Notes: generated by a model from the letters alone, not told the origin. A stretch of DNA of 64,000 nucleotides from an uncultured bacterium (GCA_963749495.1 CAVVMW010000005.1:288001-352000); one strand, 5' to 3'. Counted from the first letter of the stretch, positions 23,427-49,936 are shown. Program-made: numbers and translations.

Positions 23427-23636
23427 TTATAAAGCAAGCTGATCCACGCGCGGTTGGGGTTCGAACTTGCGCATGAAACTGGCGTTCTTGTGACAGCGCC
23501 CGCAGTAGGCGGGCGTCGCCTGGCGTGTGACCCGGAGCTTGAATCCCCGCTTCGCGCTCATCGACAGGTTCTGGTCATCCTCCTTGGGGTCGCCGCCGTG
23601 GCAGTCGGCGCAACTAATCGCGCGGTGGTGATGCAC
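23427..23636 (-). pseudogene. Multihaem cytochrome c fragment
   Basis: Two CxxCH motifs (CADCH, CGRCH); no proper start or end. Confidence 0.6.
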
Positions 23637-24906
23637 ATATGTCGTAATCCATCATGGCCGGAATCTGCACCAGCGACTTGGGCCAGGTCTGACAAAGCCG
23701 CCCGGCCGGGTTGTAGTCACCGAACAGGACATCGGCCAGGCCATTGCCTTCCTCCTGGCTGCTGTGGGCGAGGTGGAGAATGGCCGGGACATTCTCCTGT
23801 GCCCAGTTGATGGCGTAGGGGAAACTCGAGACGAGGACAACCACCGTCTTGGGATTGGCCGCGAAGACCTGCTTGACCAGTTCCTCCTGCCCGCTGCCGA
23901 GGGTTATGTTCTGGCGATCTATGGCTTCGCGGCCCTCGCTATCATCATTGACTTTCATCCACTTGTTTTGGAAAATATAGCGGGCTTCATAACCCTCGGT
24001 GGCGCCGACCTGATGGAGGATGTCGGTGTCCCAAGTCTCGCCCAGGCCGATGGCCTGGGGGTAGGTGGTGGTGGAGCCGCCCCCCGCCCTGAGGCCGTGG
24101 AGGCCCTCGACCTGCATCATCGAGCGAATCCCCAGCCGGGGCACGCCCGGCCGTTGCGAGAGCAAGGCCACTTTTTTGTGGAACTTCACGAGCCGGTCGA
24201 ACATCATTTTGTACATGGCGGCGGTGCCGTATTCTCCGCGGCGCCCGCCCCACCAGAACCAGGTGCCGTTCATCTCGTGGAAGGGGCGCCAGAGCAGCGG
24301 CACGCGAGCCTCCTCGAGCTTCTTCAGATACGGCACGATGGCATCGACCTGGGCGCACCAGCGCTGGTGGAGTTCAGTGCCCGGGGTGAGGAGGTCTTTG
24401 TATTGTGCTTCGGTGAGCCGGCCTTGCACGGAATTCAGATTGGTCAGGTTGGTGTCCGCGCCGCCGCCGCGCCGTCTCATGAACGTAACCGGTTCGTCGG
24501 CCGTCGGCGGCACCTCGTGCCAGCACATCACGACGAGCGAGCCGTTTCTGTAGTGCTCCTTGAGCTCTTCGACGATGTCGTTGCGGACGTAAGCGGAATC
24601 CTTGTCGCCTTCCTTGGCGAAGCCCCAGTCCTTGCCGAAAATGGCCGGCGTCTTGCCCCAGGCCTTGGCCGCGGCCGCTGTGTGCCTGTCTTTGTCCGCC
24701 GGGAAATTGTGCTGGCCGCTCAAGGTTTGCTTGCCGGAAATGCGGTAGAAGAAGTTCAACAATTCCACCGCCTCCGGAGACGCACCCGGGGTGACCGGCC
24801 GAACGGCGCTCTCGGCGCCAGAAAGCGATGAGGCATTGATGCACAACAGTCCGATCAACGCACTGAAGCCGATCCGCACTTTTTTCATAGGTTTCCTCGG
24901 TCTCAT
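23614..24906 (-). pseudogene. Chimera: GH26 mannanase N-terminus fused to GH3 fragments
   Basis: WRPFHEMNGTWFWWG (GH26) then VEGLHG, YPQAIGLGETWD, GDYNPAGRL (GH3). Confidence 0.7.
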
Positions 24907-33837: not shown

Positions 33838-34039
33838 GTGGAAGGCTATTTCCGCTGAAAAACTGAGTAGCCATAGATCCCAAAGGCTCTCATGTAAACT
33901 CCGTCCCGCAAGCTCCGGCGCCAGGTCTGCCACTCGTGTGCGGTGCCCGGCGATTCGTAGAACACGGTCTTGATTCCCGCCTTCTCCAGCGCATCGCGGT
34001 AGTTCTTGACACTGTCGCACATCCGCTTTTGCTCCGCTG

Positions 34040-34336
34040 AACGGTAGGCAGGCGGATCTGGCCGCGAACGGTCCGCACCGCTTCGTCCTGGTCACGAATC
34101 GGCAGCGTGATCCACTCCTCCCAGGTCACCGGGCGGACCTTGGAAGTGCGGAGTGCAGAGTGCGGAGTGCGGAATGAATCGAACTCCAGATCGGGTAGAT
34201 CTTCGCGCTCGATTTCCAGGCCGGTGGCCACGTTGGTGGCCATCATGCAGAACGCCTCTTGAGGCGTGCGCACGTTGATGGCCTGCCAGTTGCGGTTCAG
34301 CACCAGCACGGTCGCTTTTGTCAATGTACTGCTCAT
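34040..34336 (-). pseudogene. HNH endonuclease (McrA-like), N-terminal half, last gene of the tRNA operon
   Basis: VLVLNRNWQAINV...WEEWITLP...IRLPTV; HNH core absent; heptamer insertion in frame. Confidence 0.7.
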
Positions 34337-34415
34337 AAAAAGGGGTCGAGGGTCGAGTGACGAGGACCGGAAGCGCGCTGCGGCCGAGCTTCCCTCGTGG
34401 CCCTTCATCTGCCCA

Positions 34416-34433
34416 AGGTGTTTGTTCTTTGTT
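34416..34433. repeat. 18-bp inverted repeat, trailer arm
   Basis: AGGTGTTTGTTCTTTGTT, exact reverse complement of 41150-41167. Confidence 0.9.
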
Positions 34434-34483
34434 GAGGGCCTTAGCCTTTAGCCTTCAGCCTTCAGCCTTTGGCCTTTGAAGCA

Positions 34484-34558
34484 TGGCTGCCTCGCCTGGA
34501 ATTGCACCAGGTCCTTCGGTTTCAGAGACCGACGCGCTCCTGATTACACCACGAGGCC
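34484..34558 (-). tRNA. tRNA-Gln(CTG)
   Basis: TCGGT-CTCTGAA-ACCGA arm, encoded CCA. Confidence 0.85.
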
Positions 34559-34627
34559 CGCCGTCGCGCTTTGCGCTAAGGCGCGGCAAGCGATTGGCCC
34601 GCCGAGCCGTAGCCGGCAGGCGAAGGC

Positions 34628-34701
34628 TGGTCGCTCGGGAAGGTCCTGCCCCTCCGATTTCTGGGTGTAGGCCAGACGTGATGCTATTTCACCACCGAGC
34701 C
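34628..34701 (-). tRNA. tRNA-Val(TAC)
   Basis: TCTGG-CCTACAC-CCAGA; C33; CCA. Confidence 0.75.
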
Positions 34702-34811
34702 TTTCGAATGCGGAACTCGGAATGCGGAGTGCGGAGTGCCAAACGAGAACGAAGGCTGCTTGTGCGCGCGCCCCCATTCCGCACTCTGCATTCCCCACTC
34801 CGCACTGGGAA

Positions 34812-34885
34812 TGGCTGCCTCGCTTGGATTCGCACCAAGATCATCGGGGTCAAAGCCCGGCATGCTGCCGTTACACCACGAGGCA
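34812..34885 (-). tRNA. tRNA-Gln(TTG)
   Basis: TGCCTCG acceptor, CTTTGAC loop, CCA. Confidence 0.85.
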
Positions 34886-34993
34886 AGGAATCGGCCTGCC
34901 AAGCCGTAGCCCGGCACGTCACAAATGCTCGCCTCCGCACTAGCGTGCTTCGGCGCAGCAGCCCTCGCCACCCGTCGCGCGTGTGGCGAAGGC

Positions 34994-35070
34994 TGGTGGA
35001 GCCGGAGGTAGTTGCAACCTCACCAAACCCGATTAAAAGTCGGGTGCCGGTCTGCTGTGGCTTCGGATCC
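34994..35070 (-). tRNA. tRNA-Lys(TTT)
   Basis: CCCGA-CTTTTAA-TCGGG; CCA. Confidence 0.8.
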
Positions 35071-35077
35071 AGGAAAA

Positions 35078-35162
35078 TGGTGGGCGAGAGAGGATTTGCA
35101 CCTCCAAGGCTCACAGACTCTCGATCTGTGGGGTCTGCTAATTCCCTCTGAACCACTCGCCC
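35078..35162 (-). tRNA. tRNA-Leu(GAG), atypical fold
   Basis: ACAGA-TCGAGAG-TCTGT; short variable region; C33; CCA. Confidence 0.75.
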
Positions 35163-35171
35163 AAAGAAAAG

Positions 35172-35247
35172 TGGTGCTCCCGGCCGGAATCTCACCGGCA
35201 ACCTCAGCCTTCGGAGGGCCGCGCTCTGGTAATTGAGCTACAGGAGC
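35172..35247 (-). tRNA. tRNA-Arg(CCG)
   Basis: CGGCC-CTCCGAA-GGCTG; CCA. Confidence 0.85.
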
Positions 35248-35343
35248 AGTCCTAATGTGGAATTCGGAATGCGGAGTGCGGAATAAGAATGTGCACAGGG
35301 CTCTGCACACTCCGCATTCCGCACTCTACACTCACCACTTGAA

Positions 35344-35414
35344 GGGGTCTCCTGCCGGTGCTGCCCCGGCCTGGCTTGTTTACAAAACGAGCCTGCAGGC
35401 TGCCGCAAGGAGAC
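35344..35414 (-). tRNA. tRNA-Thr(TGT)-like, small D arm, no CCA
   Basis: GTCTCCT/AGGAGAC acceptor, TTTGTAA loop. Confidence 0.6.
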
Positions 35415-35452
35415 GAGATGGCCTGCCGAGCCGTAGCGCTCGGCGCGAAGGT

Positions 35453-35618
35453 TGGTCGCAATCCCCAGTGCTGCCCTGGGCACGGCTGGCTTATGAAACC
35501 GGCCTGAGCGCTAGCCCTTTCAAGTGCAAAGTGGAGAATGCAAAGTGCGGAATGCACCGGGCGCGGGCGTAGCGATGATAATTCTGCACTCCGAATTCCG
35601 CATTCTGCACTGATGGCG
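35453..35618 (-). tRNA. tRNA-Met/Ile2(CAT), interrupted by a heptamer hairpin
   Basis: TTCATAA loop, CCA; candidate 5' acceptor strand CGCCATC (35612-35618) lies beyond a roughly 90-nt hairpin. Confidence 0.55.
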
Positions 35619-35652
35619 GGTGGGTCTGCTCTTCCCCGTGAACCACGCGCCG
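35619..35652 (-). pseudogene. 5' half of a fifth atypical tRNA-Leu
   Basis: CGGCGCG-TGGTTCAC-GGG-GAAGAGCAGA-CCC matches the other Leu genes. Confidence 0.65.
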
Positions 35653-35658
35653 AGAAGA

Positions 35659-35769
35659 TGGCGTCCCTGACCGGCTTCGCTCCCGCCTTCGCTGGAAAGC
35701 TACGGCGGGGCAGGCCGGTGATCTCCTGCATGAGAGGCAGGCATTTTGTCTGGACTACACCACAGGGAC
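35659..35769 (-). tRNA. tRNA-Glu(CTC) with 33-nt insertion in the T arm
   Basis: CCTGC-CTCTCAT-GCAGG; insert 35682-35714; CCA. Confidence 0.8.
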
Positions 35770-35775
35770 TGAAAA

Positions 35776-35852
35776 TGGTGAGGGCAGGAGGCTTCGCACC
35801 CCCAACCTGATGCATGTGACGCATCCGCTCTGGCTGGCTGAGCTATGCCCTC
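35776..35852 (-). tRNA. tRNA-Val(CAC)
   Basis: GATGC-GTCACAT-GCATC; CCA. Confidence 0.85.
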
Positions 35853-35888
35853 AAAATGGCTCGCCGAGACGTAGCTCCGAGCGAAGGC

Positions 35889-35964
35889 TGGTGGGGGACG
35901 AAGAGTGCTGCCCTCTTTGCCTCTCGGATGTCAGACGAGCGCTCTCCTGGTGAGCTACGTCCCC
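35889..35964 (-). tRNA. tRNA-Val(GAC)
   Basis: CTGACAT loop, GCTC/GAGC D stem; CCA. Confidence 0.75.
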
Positions 35965-35970
35965 AACAAA

Positions 35971-36020
35971 TGGAGCGGGTGGACGGAGTCGCACCGTCGA
36001 CTCGGCCTTGGCACGGCCCT
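35971..36020 (-). pseudogene. tRNA-Gly(GCC), 3' two-thirds only
   Basis: GGCC-GTGCCAA-GGCC, T arm, CACCCGC-T-CCA; 5' part missing next to the GIY-YIG stop. Confidence 0.7.
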
Positions 36021-36030
36021 TGGAGATAAA

Positions 36031-36297
36031 CTAGCTCCCCAGGCTCTCCGCTCCGCCCCAGAAGTGTCGTTTTGCGAAGGCATGGCCGGACCCGCTCTTC
36101 AGGTATTTCTCGAAGTGCTGGGCCTGTTCAAGGGACTCGAACGCAACGTACACCTTGAGCGTCCAAGGTATGAACTTGGACGTGTGCGGACATTTACCGG
36201 CGTTATGGTCTGCCACTCGTTGACGGAGGTCTGCCGTATGACCGATGTACCTCTGGTCGCGGTGGCTCAAGCTCTGGATGACGTATGTGTAAAACAT
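36031..36297 (-). CDS. Stand-alone GIY-YIG nuclease
   Basis: YTYVIQS...YIGHT.DL..RV..HNAG...FEKYLKSGSG. Confidence 0.9.
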   Translation of the reverse strand: MFYTYVIQSLSHRDQRYIGHTADLRQRVADHNAGKCPHTSKFIPWTLKVYVAFESLEQAQHFEKYLKSGSGHAFAKRHFWGGAESLGS

Positions 36298-36680
36298 ATT
36301 GCGGCCTGCCATCCATAGCTTGGAACCCGTTCCGTGGAAAGTCCTCCTTCGCCGAGCCTACGGAGGACATCCTCCGTTTGGCCCCCTCGCCTGGCTCGGG
36401 TTCCGAGCGGAGGATGGTGTCCCCAGCCGATTAAATCCAGAACGAAGAATGCAAAGTGCAGAACGCCCCACTCCCTCGCCATTGTCGAAAACCCAAATCC
36501 ATTTTGCATTCTTCATTCTGAATTCTTCATTTCAAAGGGCGGCCTGGATTGCGGGTCCGGTTCCGCTCGCTGGGAAAGGAGGCCGTTTCCTGCTGCTTGT
36601 GCCGCCAGCGCAGGAACTTCTGAAACCGGGCAAAATTCGTTCGGAGCGAATTTTGATAGGTTTTGTCCTCGAAGAACAAA

Positions 36681-36768
36681 TGGCGGAATGCCGTGGACTT
36701 GCACCACTTGCCTGGAGGCACGCACTCGTTAGCACCGAGGCCCGGTTCGCTTGCCCGGTTGGCATTCC
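36681..36768 (-). tRNA. tRNA-Ser(GCT), 8/4 fold
   Basis: 8-bp acceptor GGAATGCC/GGCATTCC, 4-bp T stem, long variable arm, G73-CCA. Confidence 0.8.
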
Positions 36769-36808
36769 AGAAATGGCCTGCCGAGCCGAAGCTCGACAGA
36801 GCGAAGGC

Positions 36809-36892
36809 TGGTCGGCGTGGGGAGACTTGCGCTCCCAAGGCTGTTCGGGTTTGAGCCGAACCGGTCTGCTATTCCCGGTAAACCACACGCCG
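36809..36892 (-). tRNA. tRNA-Leu(CAA), atypical fold
   Basis: TTCGG-CTCAAAC-CCGAA; A73-CCA. Confidence 0.8.
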
Positions 36893-36924
36893 GCCCGCCG
36901 AGCCGTGGCCCGGGGAGCGAAGGT

Positions 36925-37010
36925 TGGTCGGCGCCCCGGGACTTGCACCCGGAAGGCTCAGCGATTTTAAGTCGCTGGGGTCTGCTGATTCCCGCTGAAG
37001 CCAGGCGCCG
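36925..37010 (-). tRNA. tRNA-Leu(TAA), atypical fold
   Basis: AGCGA-CTTAAAA-TCGCT; A73-CCA. Confidence 0.8.
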
Positions 37011-37123
37011 AGAAAATGGCCTGCCGGGTCGGAGTTCGGAGCGAGGGTCGGATGCCCGCCTACGCCTCAAAGGCAGGCTTCGGCGAGACAGTCTTCGTTC
37101 TCCGCTGCGCTCCGAACGAAGAC

Positions 37124-37207
37124 TGGTGGGCATGGAGGGACTTGCACCCCCAAGGCTGCCAGATTCTGAATCTGGACCCTCTGCTATTCGGGTTGAACCA
37201 CATGCCC
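37124..37207 (-). tRNA. tRNA-Leu(CAG), atypical fold
   Basis: CCAGA-TTCAGAA-TCTGG; A73-CCA. Confidence 0.8.
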
Positions 37208-37216
37208 AGTTGAAAT

Positions 37217-37292
37217 TGGTGCTCCCGGCAGGACTCTCACCTGCAACCGGCGGTTCGAAGCCGCCCGCTCTGATATTTTGAGCTACGGGAGC
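37217..37292 (-). tRNA. tRNA-Arg(TCG)
   Basis: GGCGG-CTTCGAA-CCGCC; CCA. Confidence 0.85.
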
Positions 37293-37378
37293 CCTCCAAA
37301 TGCAGAGTGCGGGATGCAGAGTGCAGAATGACGCCCTTCCGTTCTGCGTCCCCCATTTTGGATTATTCAGTTGAAAAT

Positions 37379-37825
37379 TGGGGCCGGTGGGGAGACTCGC
37401 ACTCCCGTGGTAACTGTTCAGGTGTTGGACCAGTGCTGGCTTCGACGCCAGCGCCGGGCCCAGCCAAGCCGTTGTCCCGGAGGGACAACCCGAGAATAGC
37501 CCGGCGCTTCAGCGCCGGGTCCGACGCCCTAAAAACCCCGCGTCCCGACAGGGACGCCTGAGGCTCAGCACCGCAAGAGGCCAGCCGATTCAGCCGTCCC
37601 TCCGGGACGGGCGGGAGATTAGACCGCTTTCCCCGGCGCTGAAGCGCCGGGCTATTTTCGGGCTGTCCCTTCGGGACAACGACGGCCCTCGAACCAGAGC
37701 GCGTCCCGAGAGGCCCCGGCGGCGATGTGGCAACCCATGTGCCGAGACCTGAACAGTTACCTCCCGTGGGACGAATTGCCCGGCAGTTTACGAAACTGCT
37801 GCTGTCGCTGCTGAGCCACGCCGGC
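37379..37825 (-). tRNA. tRNA-Thr(CGT) with long variable arm, split by a MITE
   Basis: GCAGT-TTCGTAA-ACTGC; removing 37410-37768 restores the gene. Confidence 0.75.
37410..37760. mobile_element. 351-bp MITE-like element carrying a REP-type long palindrome
   Basis: TIRs GTAACTGTTCAGGT/ACCTGAACAGTTAC; direct repeat CTCCCGTG at 37402-37409 and 37761-37768. Confidence 0.9.
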
Positions 37826-37933
37826 CTCCGAAATGCGGAATGCAGAGTGCGGAGTGCGGGATTGCACAGAGCCGTCACAACAACGCTTGTGCTCCTCATT
37901 CCGCACTCAGCACTCCGAACTCCGCACTGAAAA

Positions 37934-38007
37934 TGGTGGGTCGCCACGGTGCTGCCCCGTGCTCTGCGGTTTAAGAGACCGCTGCATCGCTGCAATGCTT
38001 GCAACCC
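37934..38007 (-). tRNA. tRNA-Lys(CTT)
   Basis: GCGGT-CTCTTAA-ACCGC; CCA. Confidence 0.85.
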
Positions 38008-38010
38008 AAC

Positions 38011-38085
38011 CGCGACACGAAGGCGGAGTTGAACCGCCGCAGCCAGATCTGTGAAGTCCTGGCCGGCACCGGTGTTCGCGTCGCG
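38011..38085 (-). ncRNA. tRNA-like RNA (11-bp closing stem, canonical T arm, no CCA)
   Basis: CGCGACGCGAA/TTCGTGTCGCG; GGCGG-TTCAACT-CCGCC. Confidence 0.55.
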
Positions 38086-38090
38086 TGAAA

Positions 38091-38165
38091 TGGAATCCCG
38101 TGTGAGAGTCGCACTCACCTGCGCGGTTTTGCAGACCGCTGCCTGGGCTGCTCGGCCAACGGGAC
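38091..38165 (-). tRNA. tRNA-Cys(GCA)
   Basis: GCGGT-CTGCAAA-ACCGC; U73-CCA. Confidence 0.85.
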
Positions 38166-38273
38166 ATCTGAATGCGGAGTGCGGAGTGCGGAGTGCAGAG
38201 TGCAGAGTGCGCAATGTCTGCGGTGCTGCCCCTCAGGCATTCCGCATTCTGCACTCCGCACTCAGCATTTGGT

Positions 38274-38700
38274 TCACGCTGCCCGCACAAAGTCCGAGAT
38301 GACGGCTGGAACGCTGGTGTCGAAACCAACCACGTCCAGCATCCCGCGGTCGTTCGGGTCGGCCAGGGTGAAGCCACTTAAATGAAGAGTTAAGAATGCA
38401 GAATGAAGAACGGAGGACGCCCTCAGCCGCCGTTGGTCTTGATTCCTCATTGTGCATTCTTCATTCTGCATTCATGTGGGCCCAGACCATCGGCAGCGAG
38501 CAATCCGTGCCGCCCATCGGGATCGCACGGACCTTCTCGATGACGCTTTCCAGGCGCATTCGGGGCGAGAGGGCGACCCGGGTAATGCCTGACTCACCGC
38601 CACCCCGCTGGCCGCCGTGACCGCTGGCGGCTGCGCTGAAGGCGATGATCTCGCACTCGGGGTCGGTTGCCGCCGTCACCAGGGCCATGGCGATGGACAA
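38274..38700 (-). pseudogene. rsr: Ro60/TROVE protein, C-terminal vWA remnant
   Basis: AMALVTAAT...MGGTDCSLPMVWA and GFTLADPNDRGMLDVVGFD; split by a heptamer hairpin, N-terminus absent. Confidence 0.8.
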
Positions 38701-38701
38701 G

Positions 38702-38821
38702 TGGCGCCGTAGGGTGGGGATCTCCTTACGGGAATCGAACCCGTCCGGAACTTGAATCCGGGCGCTCTCCCATGGCGAGCGTCCTCCCCGTGCTGGAGGA
38801 TGACCTGCGGACTTCGGCCCA
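38702..38821 (-). ncRNA. tRNA-like RNA on a long stalk (Y-RNA candidate)
   Basis: D-like GCTC..GAGC, hairpin CCGGA/TCCGG, ACGGG-TTCGATT-CCCGT; ends pair; abuts the Ro60 remnant. Confidence 0.55.
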
Positions 38822-38828
38822 TGCGAAT

Positions 38829-38936
38829 TGGTCAGGAAGCCGGGATTCGCACCCGGACCGTCCGCTTCACAGGCGGAGATGCTGTCCACCCTCCGCAGTG
38901 CTGCTACGGAGGACGGGCTGTTACACCACAATCCTG
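38829..38936 (-). tRNA. tRNA-His(GTG) with 33-nt insertion in the D loop
   Basis: TCCGC-CTGTGAA-GCGGA; insert 38884-38916; A73. Confidence 0.75.
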
Positions 38937-38941
38937 GAAAA

Positions 38942-39019
38942 TGGTGCCCCCAGGTGGACTCGCACCACGATCCTCCTGCTTCGCGGGCAGGCGTGCACAT
39001 TCTCTTACACCTTGGGGGC
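38942..39019 (-). tRNA. tRNA-Arg(GCG)
   Basis: CCTGC-CCGCGAA-GCAGG; C33; CCA. Confidence 0.8.
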
Positions 39020-39112
39020 CTTGGAAGTGCGGATTTCGGAGTGCGGAGTGCGAAATGGCTGACGATTCCGGTGCGCCTCATTCCGCATTCCGCATTCTGC
39101 ACTCTGCACTTG

Positions 39113-39191
39113 GAGCGTCCGTGGCCGGACTTGCACCGGCTATGCCCGGCTTGAAGGGCCGGCTGCTCGAGCCTGCTTTGCATTCACGGAC
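39113..39191 (-). tRNA. tRNA-Glu(TTC)
   Basis: CCGGC-CCTTCAA-GCCGG; C33; G73. Confidence 0.75.
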
Positions 39192-39323
39192 AAATTGTTC
39201 ACCGTGGAAGGCTGGAACCACGGGGATTTCTGAACTCAGAATGGAGAATGAAGAGTGCAGAATGTCGAACCCTGCTGGCTCATTCTGCACTTTGCATTCC
39301 CCACTCTGCATTTGAGAGGCGCG

Positions 39324-40467
39324 CTAACGCCGGAGCGCGCGCGTCTTGTAGGTGAGGAGCGGCCGGAAGGTGGCGATAACCGAGATGAGTCCGGCGTCCG
39401 CCAGGTCCTGGACCACGTCCTCGATGCTCTTGTAGGCGGCTGGGGCCTCTTCGTAGAGCAACTCGCGCGGCTCGCAGATGACTTGGCCCCCCAGCGGCGT
39501 TTGGGTCAACTGCTGCCGGCCAAACCGTTCGCGCATGCGCAGGCGGCTCTCACTCCGGGCCCGACCTGCGGCCGGCACCGTGGGCCAAAGACCAGGCGTG
39601 GCTGACGCCATCTCCAATGGGCTTCACGAGGTAACTGAGCGACCCGCGGGAGCCAGGGATCATCACCGGCTCCCGTTCGGCTGCCACGGCACCCTTCCGA
39701 TGCACCCAGACCGCTTCGCCAGGGCTGCCCCTCACCCCGTCCCTCTCCCCATCGGATGGGGAGAGGGTGGCCGCAAGGCCGGGTGAGGGGACGCGAGCGA
39801 TGCTGTTGTGGCAGCCGTCCCAGAGGCACTCGGCCTCCGCTCCCAGCGCCTCGACGAATCGTCGAGCGATGAGCGCCCGGTTTGTCTTGGCCCACCTCAG
39901 GGCCAAGTCATGGTCGCGGAGATAGCCCGCCGCAGCAAACGACTCGGGATCGGAGCCTTCGGCCTGATGCTCTTCCGCGTACGCCCGCAGGACCGATTCG
40001 CCCAGACCGCGCGAGCCGCTGTGGACCAGAACCACCAGTTGCTGTTTGCCCAGGCCCAACCGCCTGAATGCTGCTGCGTCCAAGACGGCCTCGACCTTCT
40101 GCAGTTCGGCGAAGTGATTGGCGCCGCCGATGGTCCCCAGCGCTTCATCGAACTCCGTGGATTCAAGCTCCGCTACGGCGAGAACCTCGCCCACATCGCC
40201 TTCCCACGGATGCTCCAGGTCAAAGCGAAGGTCGGCCCACCCGCCTACGCGCTCCGCGCTCCGGCGCGGCAGGTCTGTCTTGAACAGGGCCGTGCCGCAA
40301 CCGATGTCGCCGCCGATGAGGTGGGGATAAATGACGCCCTTGGTGACGAGGGCGGCGCCCACCGGGCTGCCCTTGCCCGGGTGCAGGTCCGGGAAACCGA
40401 CCGCCAGGCGTACACTTTCGAGTCGTGCCGCCGCATAAAGCTGGCGAACCGCTTCGCCTTCGATCAT
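39324..40467 (-). pseudogene. rtcB: RtcB-family RNA ligase (PrfH-coupled RtcB2-like), frameshifted near 39560
   Basis: PDLHPGKG, GDIGCG, NHFAE, HSGSRG, HN, HRKGA, HGAGR, EEAPAAYK, RPLLTYK. Confidence 0.85.
39729..39790. repeat. CCCTCACCCC..CCCTCTCCC palindromic element inserted in frame in rtcB
   Basis: Nested hairpin encoding PSPGLAATLSPSDGERDGVRG between the HN and HRKG motifs. Confidence 0.75.
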
Positions 40468-40585
40468 CTGCCTGCCCTCCGCAAAATGTAGAATGAAGAA
40501 TGCAGAATGAAGAATGCCCCGGATCACGCACCGCAGGGCGCGGACGGAGATTCTGCATTCTCCATTCTGCACTCTGCATTTGAAC

Positions 40586-40692
40586 TGGCTGCCAGGGTTG
40601 GACTCGCACCCGCCGTCGCTCGGAGCTATGGCGGGGCAGGCCAACACCTAACGGCTTAACAGGCCGCCGTGCTGCTTTGACACAACCTGGCA
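40586..40692 (-). tRNA. tRNA-Asn(GTT) with 32-nt insertion in the T arm
   Basis: GCGGC-CTGTTAA-GCCGT; insert 40609-40640; G73-CCA. Confidence 0.8.
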
Positions 40693-40694
40693 AT

Positions 40695-40750
40695 TGGCGC
40701 TGCCGGCAGGAGTTGCACCCGCATGAGTTCGTTTAGAAGACGAATGCCCC
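40695..40750 (-). pseudogene. tRNA-Arg(TCT), 5' end replaced by a heptamer hairpin
   Basis: TTCGT-CTTCTAA-ACGAA, T arm, CCA. Confidence 0.7.
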
Positions 40751-40859
40751 TTCCAAGTGCAGAGTGAAGAGTGCAGAGTGCGGAATGCCGCGGTCGGGAG
40801 CGAGTGGCTCCAGCCTCTGGCCATTCTGCATTCCGCACTCCGCACTCCGCATTCAAGAA

Positions 40860-40948
40860 TGGTGGGAGGTGCTGGTAACGCTCCAGTCGTCGCTTCCGAC
40901 AGTTGTTTTTGACGCCGGTTTTACGGACCGGCAGTCGGAACACCTCCC
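40860..40948 (-). tRNA. tRNA-Tyr(GTA)-like, D-armless 8/4 fold
   Basis: GGGAGGTG/CACCTCCC, GCCGGT-CCGTAAA-ACCGGC, A73-CCA. Confidence 0.7.
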
Positions 40949-41065
40949 GAGATTGGCTTGCCGCGCCGTAGCTCGAAGCCGCGCGAATGCACGCGGGCGG
41001 TACGGCCCGCCTTCGCTTCGCTACGGCGCGGCAGCCTCGCTCTCAGACTGGCTTCGAGCGGAGGC

Positions 41066-41138
41066 TGGTAGCGGGGGTGGGAGTCGCGCCCACGAAGGCT
41101 GAGGTTATGGGCCTCGCCTGAATCTCATTCTCCCCGCA
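41066..41138 (-). tRNA. tRNA-Met(CAT), initiator-like, minimal D arm
   Basis: 1:72 mismatch, GCGGGG/CCCCGC, CCCATAA loop, CCA. Confidence 0.7.
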
Positions 41139-41149
41139 GTGAAATGGCG

Positions 41150-41167
41150 AACAAAGAACAAACACCT
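41150..41167. repeat. 18-bp inverted repeat, leader arm (boxA-like on the minus strand)
   Basis: AACAAAGAACAAACACCT; complementary to 34416-34433. Confidence 0.9.
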
Positions 41168-41448
41168 CTTGCTACCTTGCGGTACCAACCCACGGTTTCA
41201 CGGTGGTTCTTTCGGTGTTTGGGGGCACACCTCCTGCGAAGCCCATTTGAATGTAGAATGAAGAGTGTAGAGTGAAGAATGCCGCACGAGCGGCTCCGGC
41301 TCTTTCGACGGGGCGCCCATTCTGCGCTCTGCATTCTGCGCTCTGCATTCGATTATGGTGACATCATCAAGACGTCGGTTTCTTTTCGTTCACAGTGCTT
41401 TGCCTTTCGTTGTCGAGTTTTGCTTCTTTCAGTGCTGCACGGGTAAAC

Positions 41449-41787: not shown

Positions 41788-43154
41788 TCACCGGAGTTTA
41801 AGCAATCGCACCTCAAGCGGCGCAAGGGTGAGCGGAGCGTCCACCGGCCTGCCGGTCAGGACATCCTGCACCGCCATTGGCCGGCCGTCGCGCATCAGGA
41901 CTGCCGTCACCGGCTCCTTTCGGTAGTTGCAGAGATTCACCACGGTCCCTTGGGCTGTTTCGGTGCTCCGCCATTCCACGCCCCAAGCGGGCTGCCGCTC
42001 GGCCTCGCGCAGCTCCAGCGTGGGACGCAGGTCCCATGCGGGAAGCTTCGCCAGGATTTGTTCGTGCAGCTTCCGGGACGAAGTGGAACCGTGCCGGAAC
42101 GGGAGCTTGTCGGTGGCTGAGAGCTCGGGCCGTCTTTCGTGCCCATACTCATCCCGGCCCAGCACGTCGTCGTCGCCGACCAGCACCACACGCCCCTTGA
42201 ACTGCCGCAGTCCCGCCAAGGCTGCACCAGCGAGATGGACAACGCCGGGCACAAAAACCAATGGCGCCTGCGGGACGGAACCTGTCTCTGGATGATGTTC
42301 ACACCGTAGTCCGGCCACTTCTCCATGTCCGAGACGACCTGGCTGAAGTGCCCATAGCCGGTGAAGAAAACCGGACGCTCCTGCGGGACGCCACCCGGCA
42401 GGCAGGCCGGAGCCACAAAAGAACTGCGCCTGATGACAGGGCGCTGGTCGCCGGTCCAACGTGGCACGGCAGGGAACTGCCGCTGCCCGGCCAGGGCCTC
42501 TTTGAGTTCGCCACCCAAGCGCGATGCCATTCGTTCCAGGTCGCCGACCTGCTCGAGGGAACGGCGGACTTCTCCGTGGCGGGCGTCTTCCTCCGCATAG
42601 CCGATGAAGTTCTCCAGCACGGTGGCCGTGACTGCGGGATACGAGGGGTCCTGTCCGCGCGATTTGACCGCCTGCAAGTCCGCTTTCAGCGCGGGCAGGC
42701 TCGCCTTCAGGGCGCCTAACCGCTGGAGCGCGTTGGCGGCGGAGAAGAACCCTACGGGCGCGCTGGCGGCAGTGCTTTCCTGGTTCGCCTCCTCCAGGCG
42801 CAGCGTCAGCGCGCATCGCGCATCGCTGGCGGCTGCGCTTTCCCCTTTGACCAGCACCCGCCACACGCCCGCGGCGAGGCTAATGGTCTGGCGGACCGGT
42901 TCCCAGGAGCCCCATCCCGCAGAAAAAGCCCCGGTCACCGCGCGCGGGTTGCTCAACGTGAAAGCGACGCTAAACGGCCCATCGCCCTGGACCACGGTTT
43001 GCGCCTCTTCGGCTTCCAGAAACACCTTGTGACCGGTCGCGCACGCAGCGTCAGTATTGCGCCGGTCCCATCGCCAACCGGCCGGGAGGCCGGCGGAAGC
43101 GACTCGCTCGAAGCCCGAATTGGGAAGCAGGTTAGGCCGGCACTCGTGCTTCAA
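41788..43154 (-). pseudogene. Fragments of a secreted glycoside-hydrolase-like protein
   Basis: NLLPNSGFE, PVFFTGYGHF, and C-terminal LTLAPLEVRLL in another frame. Confidence 0.5.
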
Positions 43155-48839: not shown

Positions 48840-49936
48840 GTTTCAATTTCGACCGCGGCCTCATTCAGGCCCTTCGCGCGCGCGGTCACCCGGACCTTGC
48901 CCGGTTCACGGGTGGATTGCAGGATGGCCACGCCGCGTCCGTGATAGGCGTTGCGAACGCCATCCTTCCCCGTCGCTGGGCTGTCCGTTGAGAAAGAAGC
49001 CCTGGTCGGGATCGAAACGGAGCGTGCGGATTCCGAACGGGGTTACGGTTTCGTCCACCAGCTCGCTCTTCCGACTTAACCGGCTCTTCACGCTGTAGAG
49101 CACGGGGGAACCGGAGGACCACAATTGCGGGCCGGGGAGTTTGATTTGCTGAACGACGGTTTGGTTGGTGCCGTGCGGGAGCGTGCCGGTGGCCGTAACG
49201 GAGGCGACGGCGCGACCGTCAGGCGTGAATAGCTCTGTTTCCAGGGAGAAGGACTGGGTCTGGCCGGTGCCATTTTCCACAGCCGTCTCGATGCGAACGG
49301 TGGCGGAACCCGCCGTGACCTCGGGCGCGGTGACATACGTGCCCCAGTGCGCGATGCGCAGCCTGTCCGTAAGCTGGAGCCGGACATGCCGGTAAATGCC
49401 CGAGCCGGTGTACCAGCGCGAATCGGCAAACCGGGAATGGTCCACGCGCACGGCCAGCAGGTTCTCGGCCCCGAAGCGCACCAGCGGCGTGAGCACACAC
49501 TCAAAGCTGGAGTACCCATACGGCCGGCCGCCCACAAAGTGGCCGTTGATCCAGACCCCGAGTAATCATAGATGCCGTCGAACTCGACCGCGACGAGCTT
49601 GTTGGTATCGGCGGCGTCCGGCTTGAACCGCTTGCGATACCAGCCGACTCCGCCCGGAGCGTAGCCGTTGCCGCTGGCGTACTCGGCGCTGAACGGCCCT
49701 TCGCTGCTCCAATCGTGGGGTAGATTCACCGCTCGCCAGGCGGCATCATCAAAGGCCGGCAGCATCGCCGTGGCGAAGTCCCCCTTGCTGAAACGCCAGT
49801 CGCCGTCAAAATCGAGCACTTTCCTTATAGGAGGGGCGGTGGCCGCGCTCACACCGGCGAAGCCGATAGCTGTAGAGACCATGATGAGAAAAAGGACCGG
49901 GCGGATTCCGAAGGGGCGCGGCTTCATGGGGTTCAA
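48840..49936 (-). pseudogene. GH2 glycoside hydrolase, frameshifted and internally deleted
   Basis: LPHDWS, FDGIY, SRWYTGSGIYR, FGIRTLRFD, then jumps to the C-terminal strand. Confidence 0.75.

Follow-up and report, generated by a model that had tools for sequence, protein, structure and literature searches.

A candidate leader–trailer RNA helix with a boxA-like strand at the ends of tRNA arrays in Verrucomicrobia

Leader–trailer helices, such as the 16S and 23S processing stalks of Escherichia coli, and boxA motifs are textbook features of rRNA operons. The helices have been surveyed across phyla (PMC11404451) and studied for their function (PMC10250234), and passages of the survey describe them as substrates of RNase III and give 17 bp as the minimum for 16S function. 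For boxA, sections of PMC13753749 quote the consensuses of Escherichia coli and Bacillus subtilis, state that the antitermination complex of rRNA (rrn) operons interferes with intrinsic termination and blocks Rho, and place boxA/Nus antitermination also at suhB and at CRISPR operons in Gammaproteobacteria. Long tRNA arrays, known as L-arrays, are described in PMC8421152 with linked HNH and linked RtcB genes and with Verrucomicrobia among the phyla; passages of that paper on regulation name promoter repeats in Anabaena only, and in its main text the terms 'inverted repeat', 'RNase III' and 'antitermination' have 0 occurrences each. A search of the full-text literature, with most subscription journals outside its scope, returned no description of a closing helix or of boxA at tRNA arrays. 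In this study, we analyzed a 64,000-nucleotide stretch of DNA from an uncultured bacterium (GCA_963749495.1 CAVVMW010000005.1:288001-352000), hereafter the window, in which an array of tRNA genes lies between the two arms of an 18-bp inverted repeat, and we compared this repeat with its counterparts in the same genome and in relatives.

Complementary arms around tRNA arrays

The repeat consists of positions 34416-34433, which read AGGTGTTTGTTCTTTGTT on the plus strand, and positions 41150-41167, their exact reverse complement. These are the only two matches in the window at up to 3 mismatches; shuffling the window gave a mean of 0.02 expected matches, and two or more matches in 0 of 100 shuffles. 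All tRNAs predicted inside the bracket are on the minus strand (5 ARAGORN calls, and 13 Rfam rows of which 11 score at or above the 29-bit gathering score), so that 41167 to 41150 is the 5′, or leader, arm and 34433 to 34416 the 3′, or trailer, arm. The leader arm (41150..41167, minus strand) reads AGGTGTTTGTTCTTTGTT on the transcript strand, is near-invariant across 40 leader rows and contains the boxA-like core TGTTCTTTG at 41152-41160 (minus strand). The trailer arm (34416..34433, minus strand) is its exact complement and lies 50 nt past the encoded CCA end of the last tRNA, which the Rfam scan places at 34487-34558 (47.4 bits). An earlier note on this DNA had described both the exact repeat around the tRNA array and this 50-nt distance, as we found them here; it had also placed a tRNA 11 nt past the leader arm, where a tRNA-like sequence does start, which neither ARAGORN nor Rfam calls as a tRNA.

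Similar pairs bracket other arrays of the same genome (an assembly of 11.4 Mb in 31 contigs, of which contig C5 carries the window array). The same 18-mer pair surrounds three further tRNA arrays, on C4 (with one change), C15 and C21. The array on C7 has a variant pair, with an extra T in the leader arm and a matching extra base in the trailer 5.4 kb downstream, and its trailer additionally gives one G-U pair and two further inner pairs. On C25 we found the leader arm alone, with no trailer arm within 27 kb downstream at up to 4 edits.

We also searched 40 other genomes for the leader plus arm (95 nt) and found it, 81-99% identical, in 16 of them, namely in 14 of 24 genomes of the same family and in 2 of 16 from other families of the order. 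Up to 15 kb of downstream sequence was fetched for the leaders of 14 relatives, and 6 of these stretches contained the trailer arm. A search with the HNH gene that follows the trailer arm, taking one genome per species, gave 80 loci, mostly in metagenome-assembled genomes (MAGs) labelled Verrucomicrobiota, Verrucomicrobiia, Limisphaerales or Pedosphaera, with some other phylum labels. At 66 of these 80 loci the HNH start codon comes 7-133 nt after a trailer arm, and in 13 of the 66 the gap is 16 nt or less. The conserved unit opens with a structured leader and the 5′ arm, which a terminator-like hairpin usually follows; next come the tRNAs and the 3′ arm and, after this gap, the HNH gene. Complementary segments at both ends of a one-strand tRNA operon are also present in 31 arrays, which span 2-12 kb between the arms and carry 4-20 ARAGORN tRNAs each, with a shared order Gly-Ala-Asp-Pro-Arg-Asn; 402 of these tRNAs are on the leader strand versus 1 on the opposite strand. 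By these comparisons, the arm pair is a conserved design of L-array operons, present in several copies, in soil Verrucomicrobia of the Limisphaerales type.

Pairing of the arms and the boxA-like core

We counted as a pair a leader arm, recognised by the conserved hairpin upstream of it, together with a downstream trailer in the same stretch. This yielded 31 pairs, 30 of them distinct because L076 duplicates L042; C7 and L109 were excluded for indels. Among the 540 cells formed by 30 pairs and 18 positions, 512 are Watson-Crick, 12 are G-U and 16 are unpaired, with 10 of the 16 at the outermost position. When trailers were shuffled among the loci, 24.1 ± 1.3 cells were unpaired; the lowest count was 19, so that none of the 2000 shuffles came down to 16. 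This result is not a probability, since the genomes are related. In most relatives the helix extends inward (GUUGAAAUGG against CCAUUUCAAC) to 20-27 bp.

Several loci have changed on both strands at the same position. At position 10 a U-A pair has become A-U in L059 and C-G in L084, position 15 is A-U in L038, and the G-C pair at position 16 has become A-U in L066, L069, L095 and L105, which are 4 of the 6 loci with A16. C7 adds the insertion present in both arms and L109 an inner extension that has been re-written, which brings the matched both-strand changes to at least five kinds. Otherwise the trailer arms of relatives differ mostly by changes that keep G-U or Watson-Crick pairing, and variation is much lower in the leader arm than in the trailer arm, as would be expected if the leader were under an additional constraint, for instance from a bound protein, and the trailer needed only to pair. 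Read from the opposite strand, the same cells would give 4 G-U pairs and 24 mismatches, compared with 12 G-U pairs on the tRNA strand. This asymmetry fits pairing as RNA and is no independent proof of it, because the leader arm is rich in G and U and any transition in the trailer gives a wobble pair. Pairing of the two arms as an RNA helix is, on the comparison of sequences, well supported. The earlier note had likened the repeat to the processing stalk of an rRNA operon and had proposed looking for compensatory changes in homologous arrays. The pairing part of that proposal has held up, since the arms are kept around homologous arrays in several genera and covary there by compensatory and wobble changes.

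The resemblance of the leader arm to boxA, also noted earlier, turned out to extend to the organism's own rRNA operon. A single 16S gene was found, on contig C14, and TGTTCTTTG occurs three times in its operon: one copy lies far upstream, one in the 16S-23S spacer and one 130 nt ahead of the 23S. The pre-23S copy is part of a very long duplex (RNAduplex, -106 kcal/mol) whose other strand begins 19 nt beyond the 3′ end of the 23S, and the rrn operon therefore already has a boxA core in the 5′ strand of a closing helix. This 23S leader–trailer helix (C14:230840-234050) has about 85 nt per strand, and the 16S helix adjoins a different boxA-like motif. With the boxA consensuses of other bacteria, the arm shares 7 of the first 8 letters of E. 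coli UGCUCUUUAACA and has UCUUUG in common with B. subtilis AUGAUCUUUGAAA. The 9-mer by itself is not specific, with 129 occurrences on both strands of the 11.4-Mb genome.

Candidate functions of the closing helix

Upstream of the 5′ arm lies a conserved structured leader RNA of about 77 nt (41168..41244, minus strand), whose hairpins covary. It has three hairpins, two of them with clear compensatory changes, and RNAalifold finds both-side changes in 9 of 28 pairs over the 40 leader rows. The arm-proximal hairpin, which is among the covarying ones, carries a GNRA-type loop, and 5 nt separate it from the arm. The leader also has an internal AAACACC, a heptamer identical to the outer portion of the trailer arm. 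Comparison with Rfam gave no family for the leader at E ≤ 1, and the leader may be a regulatory RNA in its own right. A Shine-Dalgarno (SD)-like AGGAGGUG or AGGAGGTG is also present in leaders, for example in that of the window and in loci L006-L033. Conservation begins 5-6 nt after a -10-like hexamer (41250..41255, minus strand), which is TACATT here and TACAAT in most relatives, sits in a conserved TTTTACAAT block and would mark the promoter. Of 40 leaders, 31 have a GC-rich hairpin after the arm, and 23 of the 40 have a T-rich tail as well. These terminator-like hairpins were counted by criteria looser than those of the terminator scan (a GC-rich hairpin of 11-14 bp, and at least 5 T within the next 8 nt); the scan itself did not call the post-arm hairpin of the C4 copy. 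The window copy and its near twin on C15 are without this hairpin, and in both the arm is fused to an apparent tRNA 3′ end, which suggests a deletion that stopped at the arm.

We consider it fairly probable that the arms are the 5′ and 3′ strands of a leader–trailer RNA helix in the primary transcript of a long tRNA operon, serving antitermination and release by RNase III. Transcription would start about 77 nt upstream of the 5′ arm, and one transcript would cover both arms. The boxA-like arm would recruit NusB/NusE, and the antiterminated polymerase would pass the terminator-like hairpin after the arm and then 2-12 kb of untranslated RNA. Once the 3′ arm emerged, it would pair with the 5′ arm over 18-19 bp here and 20-27 bp in relatives, and RNase III would cut the duplex, separating the tRNA block from both the leader and the HNH mRNA downstream. 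Since the HNH start codon is so close to the arm, expression of HNH may also be set by the pairing or by the cut. The genome encodes RNase III (224.8 bits), and by analogy with the organism's own rRNA operon both cutting by this enzyme and Nus-factor antitermination would be plausible.

Several observations weigh against this proposal. Not all internal changes are matched: position 16 is an unpaired A-C in L065 and L088, and internal U-C cells occur in L042/L076, L063, L096 and L086. Because the leader arm is near-invariant, the evidence for covariation comes from a handful of events in related genomes. Folding energy does not discriminate by itself, since co-folding the window's leader and trailer yields a gain of -10.7 kcal/mol, compared with -6.2 ± 3.2 kcal/mol for shuffled trailers. 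RNAalifold also offers a competing structure, in which the outer 7 nt of the arm, GGUGUUU, pair with the invariant AAACACC of the leader. A scan for the sigma-70 consensus called no promoter at the leader. Among sequencing runs matched to positions 34300-41300 there was no RNA run, and DNA runs covered small shares (0.05-0.08) of this region. The remaining 8 of the 14 fetched downstream stretches reach neither a trailer nor an HNH gene, and 4 of the 8 hit contig ends; at HNH loci of 58-63% identity we saw no non-random-looking helix of at least 12 bp in the DNA available, from which absence does not follow. Finally, the window's own helix comprises 18 bp, or 19 with one outer G-U, in an eroded copy that has no terminator-like hairpin.

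The helix could be real and yet serve mainly to control the HNH gene, with the 3′ arm as its 5′ untranslated region; pairing would then hide the translation start, or an RNase III site would set the stability of the mRNA, and HNH output would be tied to full-length transcription of the array. The gap between arm and start codon leaves no room for a separate promoter or terminator, the trailer arm is A-rich and unstructured on its own, and the HNH gene is conserved as much as the arms are. As the main purpose of the helix we nevertheless think this unlikely, because it leaves unexplained why the 5′ partner carries the rrn boxA core and why this core stands exactly at the head of the array, and because the HNH gene of the window is truncated, yet the arms there are perfect. 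Control of HNH is compatible with a leader–trailer helix that serves antitermination and release, and the two are not exclusive.

We hold it to be a little less likely still that the helix is an on/off device for antitermination more than a cutting site. The leader, with its covarying hairpins, the SD-like AGGAGGUG and its mimic of the trailer, would decide whether polymerase passes the terminator-like hairpin, and the boxA arm would stay single-stranded and bound by NusB/NusE while the 2-12 kb array is transcribed. At the end of the operon the 3′ arm would act as an 'anti-boxA' that strips the polymerase of its signal and gates translation or stability of the HNH mRNA. If true, this would be a self-terminating antitermination circuit for a stress-induced set of spare tRNAs.

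That the arms act as DNA, namely as terminal repeats of a mobile element, as recombination sites of an invertible segment or as paired binding sites of a protein such as HNH, appears very improbable. The element is multi-copy, with six leaders in one genome, nuclease genes of the HNH and GIY-YIG types are linked to it, and matched changes would also keep two DNA arms identical. However, conservation among copies and genera runs about 77 nt outside the 5′ arm and, past the 3′ arm, into the HNH gene, which means that the repeated unit does not end at the arms and that these are not transposon ends. Nor do direct repeats flank them; the earlier note had pointed to target duplications as a sign of transposon ends, and with none present its stalk reading is not refuted on this point. 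No transposase or recombinase family was found among 15 open reading frames (ORFs) scanned in and around the array, a scan that was not exhaustive. The orientation of the arrays never flips, by the strand count of their tRNAs, and the 12 G-U cells would be mismatches in DNA. Scarcely credible, lastly, is a pair of independent boxA signals for convergent transcription, one per strand and without pairing: on the opposite strand the window's trailer does also spell a boxA-like 9-mer, but trailers of relatives alter this core (AGAGC, AGGAC, AATGAAG and others) in ways that keep the pairing and spoil the opposite-strand 9-mer, a change in the leader is matched in the trailer of that locus, and 402 of 403 ARAGORN tRNAs share one strand.

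RNase III leaves 5′-phosphate and 3′-OH ends. RtcB is described as joining 3′-phosphate or 2′,3′-cyclic phosphate ends to a 5′-OH (PMC4604427). The earlier suggestion that RtcB might circularise the array transcript is unsupported, because these ends are unlike those of RNase III and because an RtcB-like ORF is present in 12 of the 31 closed arrays, so that the helix does not depend on an array-borne RtcB. The ligase better fits the role in tRNA repair that was proposed for L-arrays (PMC8421152) than one in making circles.

The window array and its relation to known systems

The array body (34484..41139, minus strand) is an eroded copy of an operon of the L-array type, with a gene order common to relatives. 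Its RtcB RNA ligase gene (39324..40647, minus strand) is spread over two reading frames that overlap, 39550-40647 and 39324-39617 (Pfam PF01139, E = 2.8e-48 and 2e-10); the frame shifts just past the HGAGR motif, at 39550-39617, where the two ORFs overlap by 68 nt, and reflects either a real frameshift or an assembly error. RtcB proteins of relatives align from residue 55 onward. The array also contains a small GIY-YIG nuclease ORF (36031..36312, minus strand; PF01541, E = 4.4e-12) and a gene fragment with a Ro60-type vWA domain (38461..38700, minus strand; PF25045, E = 1.8e-13). Inserted in the array is a palindrome resembling a miniature inverted-repeat transposable element (MITE), at 37470..37681, whose arms are 92 nt long and which matches Acido-Lenti-1 RNA twice, once on each strand; by BLAST, dozens of copies that are 70-92% identical are spread across the genome. 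The HNH gene copy after the trailer arm (33890..34343, minus strand) is truncated, with the N-terminal part kept and the HNH domain lost. Taken together, the few ARAGORN tRNAs, the split RtcB gene, the Ro60 fragment, the MITE insertion and the loss of the HNH catalytic domain make the window array look like a decaying paralogue, in which the arms have stayed perfect despite the decay. The assembly is 88% complete by marker genes, and some of the frame breaks may be assembly errors.

The intact HNH paralogue on C4 matches HNH_4 (E = 1.5e-7), and its domain is similar to the HNH domains of Cas9 and IscB. In a profile search against PDB sequences, matches were confined to the HNH domain (residues ~100-160), with nothing for the N-terminal 100 residues; an AlphaFold model of the protein has a mean predicted local distance difference test score (pLDDT) of 44.7. 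Distant homologues of the array-linked HNH protein (about 29% identity over at least 85% of the length) occur among phage tRNA genes, in Synechococcus phage S-CRM01 (L128) and in Myxococcus phage Mx1 (L129). In Mx1 the HNH gene is flanked by two tRNA-Leu genes and has a TROVE/Ro60-type gene and a gene for peptidyl-tRNA hydrolase in its vicinity.

Long hairpins whose arms are runs of 7-nt units (RRTGCRG type) separate the tRNAs of the array. Examples are at 41240-41350, 40755-40855, 40480-40585, 39230-39320, 39030-39115, 38385-38475 (directly 3′ of the Ro60-type fragment), 38170-38270, 37835-37930, 36435-36535, 35520-35610, 35255-35340, 34720-34810 and 34132-34176. Such hairpins also lie inside ORFs with the frame intact, in the Ro60 fragment and as an in-frame 21-amino-acid insertion in the HNH genes of the window copy on C5 and of C15. 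A strict pattern for the heptad arms has 128 matches genome-wide, 13 of them within or close to the six arrays, whose combined share of the genome is 0.36%. Hairpins of different 7-nt units occupy the gap between trailer and HNH gene in other MAGs.

Many of the tRNAs themselves are unusual in the T-loop, which by a crude motif count over the 31 arrays reads TGCRA 426 times versus 212 times for the usual TTCRA; in the window, this is the probable reason for the difference between the 13 tRNAs of Rfam and the 5 of ARAGORN. Many tRNA CCA ends are followed by a spacer motif that starts with GCCTTCGC, forms a small hairpin with a TACG-type loop and ends in GGCCA, for example at 34560-34625, 35855-35900 and 35410-35460. 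An array unit of about 120 nt, a tRNA-like gene plus spacer at 37017-37129, matches six head-to-tail copies at C28:18648-19878 with 73-77% identity, and these look like a separate tandem array of one unit.

In the surroundings of the array, the ORFs at 23614-24906, 48906-49535 and 41937-43154 are fragments or odd fusions of glycoside hydrolases (GH26 with GH3 pieces, a GH2 middle piece, and a GH42-like tail in a shifted frame), and parts of these flanks recur beside other arrays. We rejected a prophage as the setting: PHROGs gave weak matches in 3 of 21 flanking ORFs, Pfam places glycoside hydrolases, oxidoreductases and transporters in the flanks, and the leader had no match among 50,697 phage records.

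The arrays belong to the published L-array kind. They share with L-arrays as described in PMC8421152 the great length on one strand, the conserved gene order, the linked HNH gene and the embedded or linked RtcB gene; for cyanobacteria, that paper describes an HNH gene upstream of the operon, in contrast to its position after the 3′ arm in the present arrays. Relative to the published L-array description, the closing helix and the boxA-like leader are new, and how long untranslated tRNA arrays are transcribed to their end and processed had not previously been described.

Archaeal pre-rRNA stems with a bulge-helix-bulge are cut by the splicing endonuclease and circularised by RtcB, and to our knowledge they are the only case in which a leader–trailer stem and RtcB together give circular intermediates. 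Unlike these, the array stems are perfect or near-perfect, with no bulge-helix-bulge seen in them, and RtcB accompanies 12 of the 31.

As in the leader–trailer helices of rRNA, complementary segments flank mature RNAs and their pairing is kept by covariation, and the array helix is longer than the 17-bp minimum given for 16S in the survey (PMC11404451). It is short, at 18-27 bp, in contrast to the organism's own 23S helix of about 85 nt. Moreover, it encloses no rRNA and instead 2-12 kb of tRNA genes and sometimes protein genes, and its 3′ strand abuts a protein-coding gene, so a role in ribosome assembly cannot apply. Hence it would work like a leader–trailer helix and is not a member of the rRNA set.

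Like boxA elements, the arm is short and U-rich; it stands in the putative leader of a long untranslated operon, 5 nt past a covarying hairpin, and its core is that of the organism's own rrn operon. Unlike them, it is also one strand of a closing helix and is usually followed by a hairpin of the intrinsic-terminator kind; binding of Nus factors would be expected by analogy. If the proposal is true, these bacteria make spare sets of tRNAs on the production line of rRNA, with Nus factors and RNase III, and the use of boxA extends beyond rRNA, suhB and CRISPR arrays. The closing helix would in that case be a short, well-defined RNA element that links transcription of the array to the ever-present HNH gene.

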